NCBI GenBank assembly: GCA_033764955.1
Contig: JANRIL010000044.1
Span: 41,944 to 105,943 of the forward strand
DNA: 64,000 bases
Origin: Cyanobacteriota bacterium
GTDB lineage: Bacteria; Cyanobacteriota; Cyanobacteriia; Thermostichales; Thermostichaceae
Direction: 5' to 3'
A program made the translations under genes and the position numbers. This document shows, piece by piece, positions 1,911 through 36,435 of this stretch; within the stretch, counting starts at the first letter, position 1, and each line of letters begins with the position of its first letter. Under the pieces are notes generated by a model. It was not told the DNA's origin. It saw only the letters and a list, made by a program, of their open reading frames with translations, and made no database searches.

Positions 1911-4100
1911 CTAGCGGTTCCCCCAACGCAGCACTCCCCATAGATTTGAGTAGTCATCCGTCCAGAGGGGATCCGTGGGCTGAGGGGTTAATCGCTGCCA
2001 GCGGGAGTCGGAGGCCAGCCTCGCCAAATCAGCATCCTCAGGACTTGCCATCACCACCCATTCGGAGGGCAAGTGACCGTTTTGCTGGGCGACAAGCGGC
2101 AGGGATAGATCCCCCTGGTGCCAAGCCCATAGGTTTTCTTGGGCGGCCAGTCTCGCCAGGAGGGGAGCAAGCTCTAAATAGCGATTGGTGATATTGAAGA
2201 TCAGCCACCCGTGGGGATTGAGGTGGGCTTGATAGATCTGGAGGGCTTCGTGGGTGAGCAAATGCACCGGCACGGCATCGGAACTAAAGGCATCCAAGAC
2301 AATCCAGTCATAGTGGGTGGTGCTGGCCTCCAGGCTCAATCGTCCATCCCCTACAATCACCTCGACCGCCGCCTCGGCCTGAGATAGATAGGGAAAATAG
2401 TGGCGGGCAAGCTCTTCGACCAGCGGGTCAATCTCAAAAAACGTCCAGGATTGCTGGGGGGTGGCATAGGCCATGAGGGTACCAATTCCCAAGCCCAAGA
2501 CCCCTATCGTTGTTAGGGATCCCTGGGGGCGAGCCGCAAACAGTTGCCCGACGGGGCCAGCTTGCGTGAAATAGGTGAGGGGTAGGGTGGGCTGATCCAG
2601 ATTGACCATGCCGTGTAAAGTCGTGCCATGCAAGAGTCGCCGCCAACGGGGAGTGGGGGAGGCGGAGTCAGCAGGTTGTGCACTTTCTACCACCCGATAT
2701 AGCCCAAAGAAACTGCGTTGGCTGTCTACCACCTCGGCACTCAAGCCGATCAGGGGTTGACTGAGCAGCAGCAGCAACAGGCCAGCACCGATCGCCTGTG
2801 CCCAGCGCGGTATCCTCAACACCTGGCTGATCCCCCAGCCCAGACCGATCACCAGTAAGCGTCCGATCCATCCCTGTTGCCACGAACTGGGATCCCAACC
2901 CAGCAGTAAAACGGGTACCAGCAACCCCAAGCTGAGGGGAGGGATCCCTCGCCAGAACCTAGGGATCGCTGACCACCCGGATAACAACAAGACGGATAGC
3001 AGCAGGGCAAAGGGATATTCCACCACACTGTTGAACAGTAAAGGGGCAACAATCGCGTTGAAGATCCCCCCCACCCCCCCGCCCAGGGCAATCCAGAGAT
3101 AAAATTCGGTCAGATAGGTGGCAGAGGGGCGCAGGCGAGCCAGTTGCGCGTGGGCATTCCAGGTGGCCACCCCAAAGGTGAGCAAATGCAGTGGCAACAG
3201 CAGCCCAGCCGGACGGACGATATTCAAAACTTGCGCCCCCAGTACGAGCGTCACCAAGCCGGGGAGGATGCCTGTCCAGATCGCTGACGGCCAGTGGGGA
3301 TCCCGCCCAAACACCGCCATAAAGGTTGCCAGATAGAGGGCAAGCGGAATTGCCCACAGCAGGGGAATCGCGGCAATATCGGTGGTTAGATAAGTGGTGA
3401 CCCCCAGCAACAAACTGGAGGGAATCGCCGCCAAAATCCCCCAGCGCCAGCGCTCCCGCCAAGTGGGTGGAGGCGAGGGATCCCCTTCTCCCGCCGGATC
3501 TTTCTCCTGATCGGCACGAGCCGGGGATCCCTTCAGGTTCAACATCATCACACCAATGCCCAGCGCCAGCAGTCCATAACCCCAACTCCAAAGGGAGCGT
3601 TGCTGCGTGAGAGAGAGCAGAGGTTCCAAAAGCAAGGGATAGCCCAACAATCCCAACAGACTGCCCGCATTGCTGGCCACATAGAGAAAATAGGGATCCC
3701 GACTGGGGGCATGGAGGCTAAACCACCGTTGGAAGAGAGGCGCTGTGATAGCCAAACAAACAAAGGGGAGTCCGACGGTCAAAGTCAGCACCGCCAATAA
3801 CCAGAGAATGGGTTGATCGATCGATAAAACGGGGAAGCGCAGTCCAATCGGTAAACTCAGAGCGGCCAAACCCCAGAACAGCAGGTAACCGATCCGTTGT
3901 TGAGCAAAGCTTCTCCATTGACTCAGCCAATTTGCATAGCTATAGCCCAGCAGCAACGCCATTTGAAAAAAGAGGAGGCAGGTATTCCAGACGGCTGGGG
4001 ATCCCCCCAAGAGAGGCAAAACCAGCTTGCCCACCATCAACTGCACCCAAAACAGCAAAAAGGCACTGAAAAAAACAAGACCAGAAACGAGAATTAGCAA
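1911..4100 (-). CDS. Fused multi-TM / spermidine-synthase-like SAM-dependent methyltransferase
   Basis: ~13 hydrophobic helices, then LHGTTLHG, VLGLGIG, FEIDP, GDGR, VLDAFSSDAVPVHL, WTDDYSN. Confidence 0.85.
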   Translation of the reverse strand: MLILVSGLVFFSAFLLFWVQLMVGKLVLPLLGGSPAVWNTCLLFFQMALLLGYSYANWLSQWRSFAQQRIGYLLFWGLAALSLPIGLRFPVLSIDQPILWLLAVLTLTVGLPFVCLAITAPLFQRWFSLHAPSRDPYFLYVASNAGSLLGLLGYPLLLEPLLSLTQQRSLWSWGYGLLALGIGVMMLNLKGSPARADQEKDPAGEGDPSPPPTWRERWRWGILAAIPSSLLLGVTTYLTTDIAAIPLLWAIPLALYLATFMAVFGRDPHWPSAIWTGILPGLVTLVLGAQVLNIVRPAGLLLPLHLLTFGVATWNAHAQLARLRPSATYLTEFYLWIALGGGVGGIFNAIVAPLLFNSVVEYPFALLLSVLLLSGWSAIPRFWRGIPPLSLGLLVPVLLLGWDPSSWQQGWIGRLLVIGLGWGISQVLRIPRWAQAIGAGLLLLLLSQPLIGLSAEVVDSQRSFFGLYRVVESAQPADSASPTPRWRRLLHGTTLHGMVNLDQPTLPLTYFTQAGPVGQLFAARPQGSLTTIGVLGLGIGTLMAYATPQQSWTFFEIDPLVEELARHYFPYLSQAEAAVEVIVGDGRLSLEASTTHYDWIVLDAFSSDAVPVHLLTHEALQIYQAHLNPHGWLIFNITNRYLELAPLLARLAAQENLWAWHQGDLSLPLVAQQNGHLPSEWVVMASPEDADLARLASDSRWQRLTPQPTDPLWTDDYSNLWGVLRWGNR

Positions 4101-5363: not shown

Positions 5364-5825
5364 TTACTGCCATTCGGGCTTGAGGGTGGCAAAGTTTCCT
5401 TGGTCTGTTCCCAGATGACAATCAACACAACTGGTCACCCGCACGGGGCGAGGAAAATCCACTTGCAGATGCAGGGCTTTGAAATAGCGAGAGTCTGCCA
5501 ACCGGAAGGGAACCGACTCCCGCGTCAGCAACGATTTTGAGTTTTGTTTCAGGTAGTTCCAGGCCAATTGCAGAGGGACACCCGTGGGTAAGGGAATCTG
5601 CTGTCCATAGTGATTGTTATCCAAGAGCAGGCGTTGCCAGGTTTGGCTGGGCATGACTTCGGCGGGCAAAGCCAGATGGCAGCTGCCACAGGCTTGCACA
5701 TAATTACTTTGCTCGATTTGGGCTTGGGTCAGGGAGGACTGGGCAGCAACCTGCCAACCCAAGAGTAGCGAGATAGCCAGGATCCCGATTCCGATCCTCA
5801 AGCGATAGTGGCGGTAGGGTCGCAT
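5364..5825 (-). CDS. Diheme cytochrome c (DHC family)
   Basis: Signal peptide; CGSCH and CVDCH heme motifs; HYG motif. Confidence 0.85.
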   Translation of the reverse strand: MRPYRHYRLRIGIGILAISLLLGWQVAAQSSLTQAQIEQSNYVQACGSCHLALPAEVMPSQTWQRLLLDNNHYGQQIPLPTGVPLQLAWNYLKQNSKSLLTRESVPFRLADSRYFKALHLQVDFPRPVRVTSCVDCHLGTDQGNFATLKPEWQ

Positions 5826-30086: not shown

Positions 30087-31886
30087 CTAGGGATCCCTGG
30101 CCGTCAGGGAGGAAATGTGACGGCGTTGTGGATCCCCCGTGGGGATGGCCGCCAGCAGTTGCCGCGTATACTCCCGTTGGGGATCCCGATACAGTTGATC
30201 AGCAGGGGCGATTTCTTCCAGACGGCCTCGGTTCATCACCAAAATCCGGTCACTCATAAACTGCACCACACTCAAATCATGGGAGATAAACAAATAGGTC
30301 AAGTCCAGATCGGTTTGTAGCTGTTTGAGAAGATTGAGCACCTGTGCCTGCACCGAGACATCGAGGGAGGATACGGCCTCATCACAAATCAGCAGGCGGG
30401 GCTGACTGGCTAAGGCACGGGCAATACAGATCCGTTGCCGCTGCCCTCCCGAAAATTCATGGGGCATCCGCGACAATGCTTGGGGATCCAAGCCCACCTT
30501 GATAAACAACTCCTCTGCCCGTTGCCGACGCACCATGGAATTGTCCCCGAGCCGATGCAAAATCATCGGCTCCAGCACACTCTCCCCCACCGTCAGGCGC
30601 GGATCGAGAGCGGCTGTCGGATCTTGAAACACTAACTGGATCTCGCGCCGCCGCTGCCGCAAGCGTTGGCGAGACAGCGCCAGCCAATCCTCCCCGTCGT
30701 AGCGAATGGATCCCGCCGTAGCTTGAGTCAGTCGCAAAATGGTTCGCCCTAGGGTGCTTTTCCCGGATCCCGACTCCCCCACCACTCCTAAGGTTTCCCC
30801 CGGATATATCTGAAAACTGATATCGTCCACGGCGCGAATGTCCCCAATCCTTTGCCGCCATACCCCCCGCATCGGGAAATGCACCTGCAAGCCCTCAACC
30901 TGGAGGAGGGGAGGACGTGATTGCAGCCGTTGCAGACGAATGGACATTTCTCCGCTACTCACTTCCAGCAAAGGGAGGGGTTGGAGAGGGATAGATGAGG
31001 TCGGCATCTCTAGCTGACCATCCTGCCGCCGCATCGTCCTGACCCAATCCTCGGTGGTGGGTAGGCGGTGCAGGCGGCGACCCAAAACCGGACGACAGGC
31101 TAACAATCCTTGGGTATAGGGATGTTGGGGATGAGCAAAGACGCTGGATATGGGAGCCGCTTCCACTTTTTTGCCTCCGTACATCACCAGCACCTGATCC
31201 GCTAGTTCAGCCACCACCCCCCAGTCATGGCTAATCAACAAAATCGACATCTGGCGCTGTTCTTGCAACTGGCGCAATAATTTGAGAATCTCTGCTTGAA
31301 TGGTCACATCCAGGGCAGTTGTCGGTTCATCGGCAATCAATAAACAGGGGTCACAGGCAATAGCACAGGCAATGGCCACCCGCTGCCGTTGTCCTCCCGA
31401 CAATTGATGGGGATAACGCCGCAAAAGGGCACTCGGTAATTGCACTTCTGCAAACAAGTCTGCTGCCCGTTGTTCTGCCTCGCGCTGATTCATCGACAAA
31501 TGGGTACGAAGAGTCTCTTGTAACTGATAGCCACAGCTATAGACAGGGTTGAGGCTTTGACCCGGATCCTGAAACACCATCCCCACCTGCCGTCCGCGAT
31601 AGGTTTGCTTGGGGCGGGCTGAGCTATCTAACAAATTCACCCGGTTTCCTTGGGGGGGAGTTAACCAGGCGGATCCACTCACTATCGCTGGGGTTGGGGT
31701 CAGCCCCATCAAAGCCAACGCTGTCATGGTTTTGCCGGATCCCGACTCCCCGACAATGCCGAGGGTCTCTCCCACCTTCAGGTCAAAGCCGATGCCATCC
31801 ACCACGGACACCCGTTGCTGCCCTTGGGGAATTGTCACAACCAAGTCTTTCACCTGCAAAAGAGGGGGGGCTGAGGGCTGGGTCAT
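30087..31886 (-). CDS. Fused two-domain peptide/nickel ABC transporter ATP-binding protein
   Basis: Two GESGSGK Walker A and two SGGQRQR signatures; HPYTQGL. Confidence 0.93.
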
Positions 31887-31971
31887 CCGATCACAGAAAT
31901 AGGTAGGCTATCGTTAGGCGCGATTATAGGACAAACCGGATCCCGACTCTAGCCCACAACCCTTGGCGGAT

Positions 31972-32050
31972 CGACCAATCTCACCGGACGCAAATAACCT
32001 TTGCAACTCAGCCGATCAGCTTGGGGCGGTGCAGCGACTTGTTATTATGT
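31972..32050 (-). mobile_element. Integron attC-like recombination site
   Basis: Minus strand R'' ACATAA(TAA)C, 5-nt AAGTC, L'' GCTGCACC ... L' GGTGAGA, 6-nt TTGGTC, G|ATCC; canonical spacing with one extra base in L''. Confidence 0.7.
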
Positions 32051-32104
32051 GTCGTGTATCGGCTTTTGAGTTGCGCTGATTCGTAACCATCTAAAGGGCT
32101 GCTT

Positions 32105-32752
32105 TCAAACTTGAAGCCAATTTCGTAAAATATTAACCACTACTGGAGCGAAAGGCTCCAATTGTCCCTGTTGAGGTTGTGTTAGCTCGTCAATCAACAA
32201 TGCTAGAACTTCTTTATCTCCTTCCAGTCCTTGGTTTGGATCTCCATAACACTTCCATAACAACACGTTGGATAATTGTTTGCGTTTCTCGATCAAAGAA
32301 CGGTTATTGTTCTCATGGTCGCCCAAGTTTAAGACTTGAATGGTATCGATTGCCCGATTACTCAACCCCTCAACCCGACCACTAATTTTAAATCGCAGTT
32401 CTGTTTTACATTCCGTCATCAGAGGAGTTAGGGGTAGGTGCTGCGATTTATGAGCATCGCCACATTGATTATGGGTATTACAACTAGCCACAATATTTAA
32501 AAAGTCGAGCGTGCGTTTAGGATTCAGTTTTTGAGCTTCTACATGCTCATTATGGCAATCATCAATGTCTTGGATTCGCTGGCAGCAATAGGCACAAAGG
32601 TAAAACTGCTCCTTGAGAGCATAGTCTCGAATCGTTGCACGAAGGACTTTCCCCTCTTCTGTTTTGTCTAGGTCATCGTATACGCCATGAGGGTTCTTCT
32701 TCTTCCAAGTTGTCAAACAAGACGGTTCAGCCCCTTTACTAATGGTTCGCAT
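32105..32752 (-). CDS. ptuB: HNH endonuclease, PtuB (Septu / retron Ec78 effector type)
   Basis: EQFYLCAYCC, HNEH, NIVASC..CGDAHK, TIQVLNL; overlaps the ATPase stop. Confidence 0.8.
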   Translation of the reverse strand: MRTISKGAEPSCLTTWKKKNPHGVYDDLDKTEEGKVLRATIRDYALKEQFYLCAYCCQRIQDIDDCHNEHVEAQKLNPKRTLDFLNIVASCNTHNQCGDAHKSQHLPLTPLMTECKTELRFKISGRVEGLSNRAIDTIQVLNLGDHENNNRSLIEKRKQLSNVLLWKCYGDPNQGLEGDKEVLALLIDELTQPQQGQLEPFAPVVVNILRNWLQV

Positions 32753-34103
32753 GACGTAATTTTTGTTTACAGAGCAATAATTTAGCTTTGACCAATTCGA
32801 GATGATTGGCAGGTAGTTCCTCGGTTAATCTGGCAAGCAATTGTTGAGCCTCCGTTAGCTTTGAATCCTGTATGGCATCTAGTAAATCATTTAGTTCAGT
32901 ATCAATTTTCTCGTTACGGATGCTAGTATCCATGACATCTAATAAAACCGTATTAGCATCTTGTCCATACTGGGAAGGCAATTGTCGCAACTTACCATCA
33001 GCTAAGGAGTAAACCAAAACATTTTTACAGTCGCTGATTATCAGAGGTGAATGGGTCGTCAGTACAAACTGACAATTTGGGAAAGTTGCAATCAAGCGAT
33101 CGCACAGGCTTCGTTGCCAAGAGGGATGTAGATGCAAATCAACTTCATCAATCAAAACGATACCATCACCTGCTAAAGGATTTTCTAGAGCAGGATTCAG
33201 CATGGCTAGACGGCGGGCAATATCACCAACAAGAGCCATTAGTGACTTTTCGCCTTGTGAAAGTTGGGCTACGTTCAGGGGTTTACCATTTTTGTCAATT
33301 GCCATGTAAAGACGAGGTTTACGATGGACTCTAAGATTGTTTATATGGGGCATAAACTGGCTAATAGCGGTGCGAACGGCGGTTAACTGCCGATCTTTAT
33401 TATTGCGTTCGTTTAACAATCGCCATACATCTTGATTAGTTTCAGCTAGTGGTCTTAGTTGGTTCAGAACCTCTTCAGGAATTCCTGATTCATTTTCGGT
33501 ATCTTCCCGCTCTCGGAACCATTCAAAAAAGCGACGAAAGTCAACGCCCTGACTTAAGGAATTATCGTAACCATCCAATTGCAAAAAGGTATGCTTAGTC
33601 CTAATTTTTAGTGGAATATCGAGGACGACACGCTCGACAGGGTAAAACGCAATTAGGGGCAAGCTAGTTTTGTCATTATGAGTGAGTGCATCACGATAAC
33701 GATTGGCTAAGCGAGTGCAGTTGTTTAGGATGCTACTATATTGAGCCCTTCGCCCTTTTCTGTTTTTTGCAAGAGTCCATTTGAAATAATGATCGATCTC
33801 GCTTTGATTGGAATTGTTCAACAATCCAGAGGAGTCACAAATTTCTATTTCAATGCTGGCCGCATTGGCAGTGTTGAGTATGGCATCTTCAGGAATAGGG
33901 TTACCACTGCCTTTTTCTGTACGTAAACGAGCAGTAAACCAGCTAAGAGAGGTTGCTAAGGCTTTCAGTACAGAGGTTTTACCAGCGCCGTTATTACCAA
34001 CAAAGACAGTAATATTGCTGGGGTTTCGCTCAGTGGGCGCTAAGGGAATTTCCAGACTTTTAAACAGCCCAATATTATTTAAGATGATCCGTTGGATTTC
34101 CAT
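32739..34103 (-). CDS. ptuA: ABC/AAA ATPase, PtuA (Septu / retron Ec78 effector type)
   Basis: GNNGAGKT, FFEWFREREDTENE, LSQGEK, LIDEVDLHLHPSWQ, TTHSP; start ATG 34103 (track extension lies in a MITE). Confidence 0.85.
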   Translation of the reverse strand: MEIQRIILNNIGLFKSLEIPLAPTERNPSNITVFVGNNGAGKTSVLKALATSLSWFTARLRTEKGSGNPIPEDAILNTANAASIEIEICDSSGLLNNSNQSEIDHYFKWTLAKNRKGRRAQYSSILNNCTRLANRYRDALTHNDKTSLPLIAFYPVERVVLDIPLKIRTKHTFLQLDGYDNSLSQGVDFRRFFEWFREREDTENESGIPEEVLNQLRPLAETNQDVWRLLNERNNKDRQLTAVRTAISQFMPHINNLRVHRKPRLYMAIDKNGKPLNVAQLSQGEKSLMALVGDIARRLAMLNPALENPLAGDGIVLIDEVDLHLHPSWQRSLCDRLIATFPNCQFVLTTHSPLIISDCKNVLVYSLADGKLRQLPSQYGQDANTVLLDVMDTSIRNEKIDTELNDLLDAIQDSKLTEAQQLLARLTEELPANHLELVKAKLLLCKQKLRHANH

Positions 34104-34141
34104 AGGGGTAAAGTTCAAACCTCTGAGGTCTCTGATGTTTG

Positions 34142-34254
34142 GGTAGTGGTAAAAAGGAAAAGACTTAAGAGGGGTCGTAGGTGCATTGCCCTTATATGGG
34201 GGCGAGGCCCCCAAACCCCCAACCAACTCCCATCCTTACTCTTTTAGAACTACC
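34142..34254. mobile_element. IS1-type MITE (113 bp) with 8-bp target-site duplication
   Basis: Ends GGTAGTGGTAAAAAG / GGTAGTTCTAAAAGAG (inverted); GATGTTTG at 34134-34141 and 34255-34262. Confidence 0.85.
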
Positions 34255-34268
34255 GATGTTTGTAGTAA

Positions 34269-34361
34269 TACGGTTGATTTACTTAAAAGTGAAAAAACAA
34301 AGCCTCTATAACAAGGGTTTTTTCAGGCCAGATTGTCTCACCCTTATCCAAATCAACCATA
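34269..34361. mobile_element. TA-bounded MITE-like inverted repeat (93 bp)
   Basis: TACGGTTGATTT...AAATCAACCATA with imperfect complementarity extending ~30 bp. Confidence 0.6.
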
Positions 34362-34520
34362 TCTCAAATATTTGAAGGCACTTACCCTTAATCATGCGCT
34401 CAAAATGGTTGCTCGGAACTAGTTTTATCTTAATTCATGATGAGGGGAACCACAGATACATAACTAGATGCTCCCCTGCTTGCCAGCAAAATGCTGCTCG
34501 CCCATAGTGGGGTTTTGCTA

Positions 34521-34832
34521 TTAAGCCGATGATTCTTCAGACTCGGCTTCTAGCTCCGCCTGCAACGCCTGCCATGCCTCTGGGGTGAGGGTGTTCAAGG
34601 CTTCCTGTAACTGTTCTTTTTCGTAAACCTGCTTTTGGTGGTGAAAGGTCATGTGACCGGAGGTGACTCGTGTCAGGTAATGGAGTACCCAGCCGAGACA
34701 CCCCAACAAAAGGATCCCACTACTCCAGGCTTGAGCTGAGGATCCCCAACCCAAGGCTTGCATCGCCCCATAGAGGGATCCCCCTGCCAGCAGGAGATAA
34801 CCACCCCAGAGTAAAACGTCCTTCCTACGCAT
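34521..34832 (-). CDS. DUF3007-like membrane protein
   Basis: MRRKDV start, 2 TM, W..YLTRV...MTF..Q..YE, acidic C-helix; downstream of ndhB. Confidence 0.75.
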   Translation of the reverse strand: MRRKDVLLWGGYLLLAGGSLYGAMQALGWGSSAQAWSSGILLLGCLGWVLHYLTRVTSGHMTFHHQKQVYEKEQLQEALNTLTPEAWQALQAELEAESEESSA

Positions 34833-34860
34833 GATAGTGAGAATCCTTAAAACATTTCCG

Positions 34861-36435
34861 CTAGCTGAGGGTGGGTGGGATCCGATCGGCTGGAGGGAGT
34901 GTCTCGGTCAAGTTTCCCATGACAGCGGCGGGGGAAATCCGCAAAAAGGGACTGGCTTCAATCGAGGTGGTGGTGATGTTGAATAGAGGATTGGAGAGGA
35001 TCCCGACCACAATCGTTCCCACGAGCGTGACCAGCATTCCCGTCTGGATCAGTCTCATGCCATCCAACGTCCAATCCACATCGGGATAGTTTTGCACAGA
35101 GCTAGACATTTCCTGGGGTTCTTTGACCACCATCGTCTTGATCACCCGCACATAGTAATAGATGGAAATCACACTGGTGACCAAGCCCACCAAGACCAGC
35201 GTATAGGCTCCTGCCTGCCAGCCCGACCAAAACAGATACAGCTTGCCGAAGAAGCCCGCCAAGGGAGGTAATCCACCCAAGGAGAGCATACACAAGCTCA
35301 GGCAAAGGGTGAGGAAGGGATCCTTTTGGTAGAGTCCGCTATATTCCGTGATTTCATCGGTTCCGGTCTGCAAGCTGAAGAGGGTGACGCACAAAAACGC
35401 CCCTAAATTCATCACCAAATAGACGAATAGATAGAAAATTAGGCTGGCGTATCCGGCCTCGCTGCCAATCACTAAGCCGATCATGGCAAACCCCGCCTGC
35501 CCAATCGAGGAATAAGCCAACAGCCGCTTCATACGGGTTTGGGCGATTGCCACCACATTGCCCAAAACCATACTCAAAATGGCTAGCACCGCAAATACCG
35601 TCTGCCATTGCTCACTCATGGTGGCAAAGGTGGTCAACAGAAAGCGAATCGCCAGGGCAAATCCCGCCGCTTTGGATCCCACCGACAAAAAAGCCACAAC
35701 CGGAGTGGGTGCCCCTTCATACACATCGGGCGTCCATTGGTGAAAAGGAACCGCCGCCAGCTTAAAGCAAATCCCCGCAATGCACAGCACCAAGGCAATA
35801 ATACCCGCCAACCCCGCTTGGGAGAGGGTGGGAGCAATCGCCTCTAGGTTGGTTTCTCCCCCCGATAAGCCGTAGAGTAAGGACATGCCGTAGAGAAAAA
35901 TCGCGGTGCTGCTGGCTCCGATCAACAAATATTTGAGGGCTGCTTCCGAGGAGCGGGGATCCCGTTTCATATAGCCCGCCATCAGGTAACTGGCAATTCC
36001 CAACGTTTCCAGCGCCACAAATACCATGATCAAATCGGTTGCCCCCGCCAGCAACATGCCCCCCAGGGTGGCGGTGAGCAGCAGGACATAAAACTCTGCC
36101 GTTGGGGATCCCGCCAAAAAGACGTACCGCTCTGACATCATCACCGTCAAAATCGCCGTCAAAACCACCAAACCTCGAAACAAAATGCTGACGGGATCCG
36201 CCGAAAAGCTCCCGAAAAACCCTGACATATCGGGATGCTGCCACTGCAAGACCAGGGTCACCAAGGCTCCGATCAACCCAATAATCGCCAGCCCCGCCAA
36301 GGATTGACGACGTTGACCAGTCCCCAGCAAATCCACAATCAAAACAATCATCAAGGTGAGGGTGACCACCGTTTCAGGAATAATCGTGCCCGCATTTAGA
36401 TTTTGGAGGTTTTGGGTTAGGGAGAATACATCCAT
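34861..36435 (-). CDS. ndhB: NAD(P)H-quinone oxidoreductase subunit 2
   Basis: [55 protein letters not shown]. Confidence 0.97.

Follow-up and report, generated by a model that had tools for sequence, protein, structure and literature searches.

The integrase IntI1 was reportedly found by Francia, Recchia and Hall in the 1990s to insert gene cassettes into secondary sites of plasmids, GWTMW or GNT in sequence, from which they are poorly excisable. According to the portion of the source used here, IntI1-3 can use attG sites in double-stranded genomic DNA, with the consensus 5'-GWT-3', as targets for cassettes, as demonstrated experimentally in E. coli and V. cholerae; cassettes inserted into genomes are sometimes excised, precisely or not, and SALINs (single attC sites without an integron integrase) are frequent in genomes, with 3,400 counted in RefSeq (Loot et al., 10.1101/2022.09.11.507474). 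In the corresponding portions of two further sources, a group of clustered attC sites that has no integron integrase is termed a CALIN (Cury et al. 2016, PMC4889954), and antiphage systems, mostly small, are described as packaged as attC cassettes in mobile integrons on plasmids (Kieffer et al., 10.1101/2024.07.02.601719). The present analysis concerns a 64,000-nucleotide stretch of DNA (hereafter the window) from the 3.8-Mb, 48-contig genome of a cyanobacterium, in which the two genes of a Septu system, ptuA and ptuB, occupy a single integron cassette between core-type chromosomal genes. In Septu, the ATPase PtuA and the HNH nuclease PtuB attack phage DNA.

The element is a low-GC block of 2,492 nucleotides (nt) on the minus strand (34463..31972), with a guanine-plus-cytosine (GC) content of 0.42 versus 0.55 in the flanks; along the window, values of 0.39-0.45 are found within the block and 0.50-0.60 outside. 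This block is one integron gene cassette composed of a leader, ptuA, ptuB and an attC site, and it was very probably inserted by an IntI integrase at a secondary G/AT site of the GWT (attG) type, followed by decay of the attC (here and below, a slash within a sequence marks the crossover point). A first-pass annotation of the window had proposed that an IntI-type recombinase delivered the ptuAB cassette into a G/AT site outside any integron, and this proposal is supported by the homology of the attC, the exact boundaries, the presence of two intI genes in the genome, and the GWT consensus; the junction elements on which it was built are all present in the sequence where they had been placed.

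Cassette boundaries and the attC site

PtuA relatives of 59-88% identity are encoded at 80 loci (designated by L numbers), the closest of them mostly at 74-88% and cyanobacterial, including Coleofasciculus, Microcystis, Microcoleus, Limnothrix, Arthrospira and others. These loci were scanned with R1, a covariance model of the R and L stems that was built from nine attC sites elsewhere in the window's genome with the candidate left out; as a result, 17 attC matches at E<=1 were obtained on 12 loci, and an attC stands directly 3' of ptuB in seven loci (L041, L046, L040, L071 and L050, together with the weak 17-bit L043 and L082). In the Limnothrix locus L041, attC sites at 146-241 and 2412-2508 bracket ptuAB, and both there and in a Thermoleptolyngbya locus (L057) the upstream attC ends in ...CG immediately before the cassette start TTATGTGTCTG. 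With the attC end written first, the upstream junction reads GATTGCGAACG/TTATGTGTCTGAAATTCC in L041 and GGTGAACTTGGTCG/TTATGTGTCTGGG in L057; the matching junction of the window reads GAGCATCTAG/TTATGTATCTGTGG, the cassette starting with TTATGTATCTG after chromosomal CATCTAG (CATCTAG/TTATGT).

The first bases of the cassette, TTATGT, are identical in the window and in the cyanobacteria that have the cassette between attCs, and in a five-way alignment (A2) conservation starts at the G before TTATGT, with nothing common to its left. Similarly, a BLAST comparison with L046 aligned query positions 96-198 and 421-2581, the cassette occupying positions 98-2589, and entered neither flank; positions 199-420, which remained unaligned, represent extra DNA in the leader of the window. 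Because ptuAB is a bona fide cassette in relatives, both boundaries of the window element are fixed, and the right junction reads GGTCG/ATCCGCC. The resulting elements are as follows.

34464, minus strand: last chromosomal base, G, the left half of the presumed G/AT target (from the sequence; invariant in five of five aligned loci)
31972..34463, minus strand: integron cassette, from TTATGT through the G of R' (from the GC shift, BLAST to L046, and the upstream attCs in L041 and L057)
31966..32053, minus strand: attC (from the R1 match and from alignments to the genome's attCs and to orthologous attCs)
31887..31971, minus strand: right chromosomal flank, from ATCCGCC to the start codon of an ABC ATPase gene (from sequence and GC)

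The attC reads R'' ACATAATAAC (32050-32041), spacer AAGTC, L'' GCTGCACCG (32035-32027), L' CGGTGAGA (31986-31979), spacer TTGGTC, and a hybrid R' GATCCGC (31972-31966), of which only the G is cassette-derived; the L arms pair, GCT(G)CACCG of L'' with CGGTG-AG of L', and the extrahelical base is present. The geometry given in the first-pass annotation proved correct, in that the candidate aligns with the attC family of the genome and is recovered by the independent R1 model (31966-32053, minus strand; 26.3 bits, E 2.9e-5) as the sole match at E<=10 in the window, with no other R1 match on the contig that holds it (C48). The conserved centre GTTGCAAAGGTTA and the L''/L' arms are common to the candidate and the attCs beside the genome's intI genes, and a search for the central motif with two mismatches allowed located further GTTGCAAAGGTTA-type sites across the genome. 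In an alignment made by eye, the candidate matches the sites at C7:3463 and C12:18162 (contig:position) base for base; for instance, C7:3463 reads ...GCTGCACCGG...GCGTCCGGCGAGC-ACGACC-GTTATGC, and the candidate reads GCTGCACCG...GCGTCCGGTGAGA-TTGGTC-GATCCGC. Moreover, compensatory changes occur in 9 of the 16 predicted pairs of the L stem in the nine-sequence alignment A1. The attC is genuine and belongs to the genome's own attC family. A scan of 31500-35000 with Rfam at E<=10 yielded no attC family and no retron RNA, the two sub-threshold matches in it (E 0.69 and 5.4) being at the level of chance.

The attC is also visibly decayed. Orthologous attCs score 62-72 bits versus 26.3 for the window site, and alignment A3 reveals that it has gained 10 nt in R'' and lost 5 nt next to L''. 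The TAA duplication of 3 bp that had been proposed for R'' is a valid parse of three of the extra nucleotides and falls short of the total of 10, the other seven forming a 7-nt imperfect repeat. In the orthologues L041, L043 and L050, R'' is ACATAAC, the exact complement of G plus TTATGT; the R'' region of the window contains ACATAA, which complements TTATGT, and with the present 7-mer TAATAAC five of seven positions pair. The earlier suggestion of a once-circular cassette is supported by this complementarity between the start and the orthologous R'', together with the position of ptuAB between attCs elsewhere.

Of the 75 R1 matches of the genome, 61 have GTT as their R' triplet (read by eye), and the candidate has GAT; among orthologues, GTT is found in four of six, with GTG in L040, ATT in L050 and GAT in the window. 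The cassette of L040 has both junctions at G/TG (CTAG/TGATGT on the left, 3450-3470; AACCG/TGAGAT on the right, 5610-5625) and no upstream attC; it could represent a further insertion at a secondary site, the crossover triplet being an uncommon one. In the window, the present R boxes pair at two of seven positions (GATCCGC versus the complement of TAATAAC). From this pairing and the score of 26 versus 62-72 bits, poor excision of the cassette, that is, the lock-in envisaged by the first reading, is plausible; certainty is cautioned against because excision of attG inserts is published.

Integrons and lone attC sites of the genome

With the integron integrase profile TIGR02249 (cut-off 265 bits), two intact intI genes were found, at C9:19-960 on the minus strand (463 bits) and C38:63588-64529 on the plus strand (451 bits), each divergent from an array of R1-type attCs. 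Both lie on contigs other than that of the window, as do all TIGR02249 matches, which agrees with the earlier remark that the window holds no intI. Fragments of intI are present on C36, C4, C30 and C38 (182.6-182.9k), and C27 shows partial matches that are weaker still, at 29-34 bits. Two complete chromosomal integrons are thereby delimited, C9:19-8473 with eight R1 matches (L022) and C38:54050-64529 with four (L021). In the C38 array, sites of about 95 nt with the form RYYYAAC-spacer-L''...L'-spacer-GTTRRRY stand between cassettes, and the R'' of each cassette complements the TTRRRY that follows the preceding attC (GTCTAAC with GTTAGAC, GCATAAC with GTTATGC).

Across the genome, the R1 scan at E<=1 returned 75 sites over 32 of the 48 contigs. 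A site was called array when another R1 match lay within 5.1 kb (42 sites) and lone otherwise (33 sites), with no rows dropped; 33 such isolated sites amount to an unusual dispersal for a 3.8-Mb genome. In counts for which R' triplets were read by eye, weak matches (possible false positives) were included and contig ends may hide neighbours, a non-GTT R' was present in 12/33 lone and 2/42 array sites (p=6e-4), and GAT in 4/33 and 0/42 (p=0.034). Among matches of at least 26 bits, the corresponding figures are 8/27 lone and 0/38 array for non-GTT (p=4e-4), and 3/27 and 0/38 for GAT (p=0.07).

All four GAT sites coincide with the right-hand end of a low-GC stretch. One second lone cassette, C28:79100-80193 (L112), carries genes for a SnoaL-like and a cupin protein and has the right junction AACG/ATAACA; its left junction, GCCGATTG/TTATAC, coincides with a GC shift, is the only TTATAC in 6 kb, has a G before it, and complements R'' GTATAAC. 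At C42:17037-19700 (L113), a lone attC with a G/ATCCCC junction stands at the edge of a low-GC stretch of about 2.6 kb, which encodes an AAA_21 ATPase and a DUF4276 protein (PADLOC HEC-01A 1.3e-70 and HEC-01B 5.5e-8), both in the orientation opposite to that of the attC; on the left, the junction is ambiguous, as TTATGC occurs 1,966 and 2,245 nt upstream and the GC shift near 2,600 nt. At the lone site C27:28758, the matching TTAGGT follows an apparent decayed attC end, CTTGGTCG/TTAGGT.

The first-pass annotation had further suggested that GATC sites, abundant in a genome rich in the highly iterated palindrome (HIP), serve as landing pads for cassettes. In line with a preference for GATC or for the abundant palindrome GGGATCCC, two of the four GAT junctions, those of the window and of C42:17037, have the form GATC, GATC occurs 9.3 times per kb, and GGGATCCC is present in 4,915 copies. 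However, neither target is GGGATCCC, that of the window being TAGATCCG and that of C42 being G/ATCCCC with an ambiguous left partner, and the published consensus, in the portion of the work cited above, requires GWT only. Furthermore, 70,806 of the 179,570 GAT triplets of the genome (39%) are followed by C, and two GATC among four GAT junctions are therefore the expectation of chance, so that the landing-pad proposal is not supported and a preference of this kind is quite unlikely. As a separate matter, the hyper-abundant palindrome of this genome is GGGATCCC (4,915 copies), versus 109 copies of the classical HIP1 sequence GCGATCGC.

A broader reading may be tentatively entertained, which we hold a little less probable than its opposite: the integron integrases of this genome, and perhaps of the group more broadly, would routinely scatter cassettes via GWT secondary sites, and indels in R'' and L'' would then fix them in place, making integrons a major source of defence genes that have become dispersed and domesticated. 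It is suggested by the 33 lone attCs among 75, 12 with a non-GTT R' and four with GAT, which together would form a readable fossil record. If scattering of this sort is true, PtuAB in the window and the HEC-01-like pair at C42 would exemplify the supply of defence genes.

Target site and proposed mechanism of insertion

The cassette is flanked on the left by a 57-nt spacer from the DUF3007 gene, which ends in GGGGAGCATCTAG with the G at 34464, and on the right by 85 nt from the cassette end to the start of a gene for a double ABC ATPase. The neighbouring genes are as follows.

34521..34832, minus strand: left neighbour, DUF3007 gene (Pfam DUF3007 4.8e-25)
34861-36435: ndhB, beyond the DUF3007 gene (Proton_antipo_M 2.7e-82)
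30087..31886, minus strand: right neighbour, double ABC_tran ATPase gene with an oligo_HPY domain (Pfam ABC_tran 7.3e-63)

Both ends of the cassette fall exactly on the integrase crossover, and the right partner within and after R' GATCCGC, namely ATCCGCC, is unlike RRRY. Since R' reads GATCCGC, no other attC exists in the window, and core-type genes follow at 57 and 85 nt, the target is regarded as a non-integron site, and these short distances leave no room for a lost array. In the proposed course of events, a cassette circle would have been recombined by IntI, with its folded attC as one partner and a double-stranded chromosomal site, ...CTAG/ATCC..., as the other; the target would have lain in the 142-nt spacer between the DUF3007 gene and the ABC ATPase gene. 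A crossover at G/TT of the attC R' box would have linearised the circle, and the cassette would therefore start with its own TTATGT and end with its attC joined to the target's ATCCGCC, giving the hybrid R' GATCCGC. After insertion, the attC would have decayed through the gain of 10 nt in R'' and the 5-nt deletion beside L'', and two small repeats would have landed in the leader. The recombinase was thus presumably IntI, and the target triplet at the time of insertion was presumably GAT.

The same junctions bear on the possibility that the cassette is the last survivor of a decayed array (a CALIN), whose neighbours were deleted and whose GTT drifted to GAT. A decayed attC, intI fragments and many scattered attCs in the genome, and the lone C27:28758 that is seemingly preceded by a decayed attC end would all suit such a remnant; however, the 57- and 85-nt flanks contain no attC-like or attI-like remnant, deletions would need endpoints exactly on the G/TT crossover on both sides, and the CCGC that follows GAT departs from the RRRY of attC or attI partners. 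Survival from an array is accordingly considered unlikely.

Several findings weigh against insertion by IntI at a GAT site. The adjacency of the DUF3007 gene or ndhB with the ABC gene was found in 0 of 40 relatives and 0 of 22 same-family genomes, which leaves no empty site, a look for sequencing runs found none listed, and a scan of metagenome contigs for the DUF3007 protein gave 285 pattern matches and no relative; since no empty site was found, the rebuilt target CATCTAG/ATCCGCC is one that we infer. The GAT could also be a later T-to-A change of a G/TT target. The hotspot motif of attG sites, CRGM (for IntI1 in E. coli), is unmatched, positions 6-9 reading CCAA. The candidate scores poorly, its 26.3 bits corresponding to a genome-wide E of 0.0017 and to rank 65 among the 75 matches, cmsearch places the 3' end of the attC 3 nt off, and folding by minimum free energy with DNA parameters returned the L stem only for both the present and the rebuilt attC, being uninformative for the R box. 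Among lone attCs, 21 of 33 retain GTT and GAT junctions are a minority, in addition to the cautions that accompany the lone and array counts above. Finally, the ptuAB islands of the nearest kin, genomes G004 and G005, are without an R1 attC (L002 and L003; 0 matches), and the ptuAB pair therefore also persists without attC; the same genomes carry R1-type attCs elsewhere (5 and 11 matches, respectively).

These attC-free islands, together with the wide distribution of the same ptuAB, whose proteins are 74-88% identical across many genera of cyanobacteria, would be compatible with an arrival of the island without IntI, either by homologous or illegitimate recombination after transformation or by the integrase of another element, the attC being a passenger. 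Against such an arrival, both junctions match the integron crossover to the base, the opening six bases of the cassette are complementary to the ancestral R'', and the ends can be explained without direct repeats, a tRNA gene or another recombinase, which makes it very improbable. Insertion by IntI at a secondary site thus remains the reading that is adopted here. As for the kin islands themselves, L002 (G004:C160) and L003 (G005:C368) are low-GC inserts of 76-79% DNA identity, and in L002 ...GCACAATCGTTATCC persists some 60 nt beyond ptuB, perhaps as what is left of an attC that was deleted.

Cassette contents and comparison with described systems

The genes and the leader elements carried by the cassette are as follows.

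34391..34405, minus strand: conserved leader motif TTTTGAGCGCATGAT (a similar motif stands upstream of ptuA in cyanobacterial homologues)
34269..34367, minus strand: insertion of about 100 nt resembling a miniature inverted-repeat transposable element (MITE) in the leader, with inverted ends GGTTGATTT and AAATCAACC (without counterpart in the leaders of L041, L046 and L040)
34135..34256, minus strand: second extra leader stretch, with a GGGGGCCTCGCCCCC hairpin (aligns to no relative's cassette)
32739..34103, minus strand: ptuA, intact gene for an ABC/SMC-type ATPase of 454 amino acids (PADLOC, Pfam, translation)
32105..32752, minus strand: ptuB, intact gene for the HNH nuclease partner of 215 amino acids (PADLOC, translation)

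The two genes are adjacent, overlap by 14 nt, and have open frames. PtuA matches its PADLOC profile at 2.3e-164 over positions 1-419 of 421, matches AAA_21, AAA_15 and AAA_23 in Pfam, and contains the ATPase motifs GNNGAGKT and IVLIDEVDLH; PtuB matches at 4e-94 over positions 1-212 of 213 and contains a cysteine/histidine-rich stretch that is read as a putative HNH motif. Judging from these gene products, the ptuAB of the cassette would defend against phage. A retron was considered and rejected: the PADLOC models ATPase_I-A and HNH_I-A match the proteins, PtuA and PtuB score far higher, and no Rfam RNA above the gathering score lies in the island.

In the leader, a motif of the form TTTTGAG(N)GCATAAT precedes ptuA by about 90-100 nt in many of the cyanobacterial homologues (at most three mismatches). 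It is a candidate for a promoter borne by the cassette, from which ptuAB would presumably be expressed, or for a regulatory element of this Septu lineage. A scan of the island for sigma-70 promoters and terminators gave counts no higher than those of shuffled sequences. The motif is kept in loci L032-L085 with or without an attC. Between the motif and ptuA, the window has about 220 nt without counterpart in relatives. The MITE-like element has partial copies at C28:98094-98192, C17:1869-1931 and C38:182524-182627, and the second stretch, which contains the GC hairpin, is matched over short lengths by several positions of genome G035. The MITE-like copy at C38:182524-182627 abuts a truncated intI fragment.

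The ptuAB cassette is thus found in two states, within arrays in other genera and alone with a G/AT hybrid junction in the window, which together provide a natural before-and-after pair. The attG route has been demonstrated in the laboratory, and junction-level proof from nature is thin in the portion of the literature drawn upon here. Integron cassettes are a form in which a complete Septu system travels among cyanobacteria; the dozens of lone attCs in this genome can be mined likewise; and a defined attC, a defined target and two integrases supply test material for attG recombination outside Proteobacteria.

When compared with described Septu systems, the PtuA and PtuB of the window resemble them in their full-length profile matches, overlapping genes and ATPase motifs, and the proteins are otherwise ordinary. 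The secondary-site insertions on plasmids share the loose G/WT with the present case, differing in that resistance cassettes on plasmids were concerned, whereas the window holds a chromosomal defence cassette. No Septu cassette is evident in the literature on integrons, Septu and attC, as far as titles and abstract openings convey. In comparison with the defence cassettes of Kieffer et al., as the portion cited above presents them, that of the window lies outside any integron, measures 2.5 kb, and carries the two genes of a Septu system behind a leader of its own. A CALIN likewise has attC-bearing DNA away from intI; however, the window site is not a CALIN cluster, because it has one attC and core-type flanking genes. 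The closest likeness, on the portion of the attG study used here, is to SALINs and attG insertions, with which the window cassette shares a single attC with coding sequence, a position far from intI or another attC, a G/WT crossover in a double-stranded genomic site that resembles neither attI nor attC, and one orientation, and from which it differs as a natural insertion with both junctions resolved against arrays, in a cyanobacterium and with another integrase lineage. The window element is a SALIN, very probably formed by attG insertion, that carries a defence cassette; it is a neat example from nature of a known kind and not a new mechanism.

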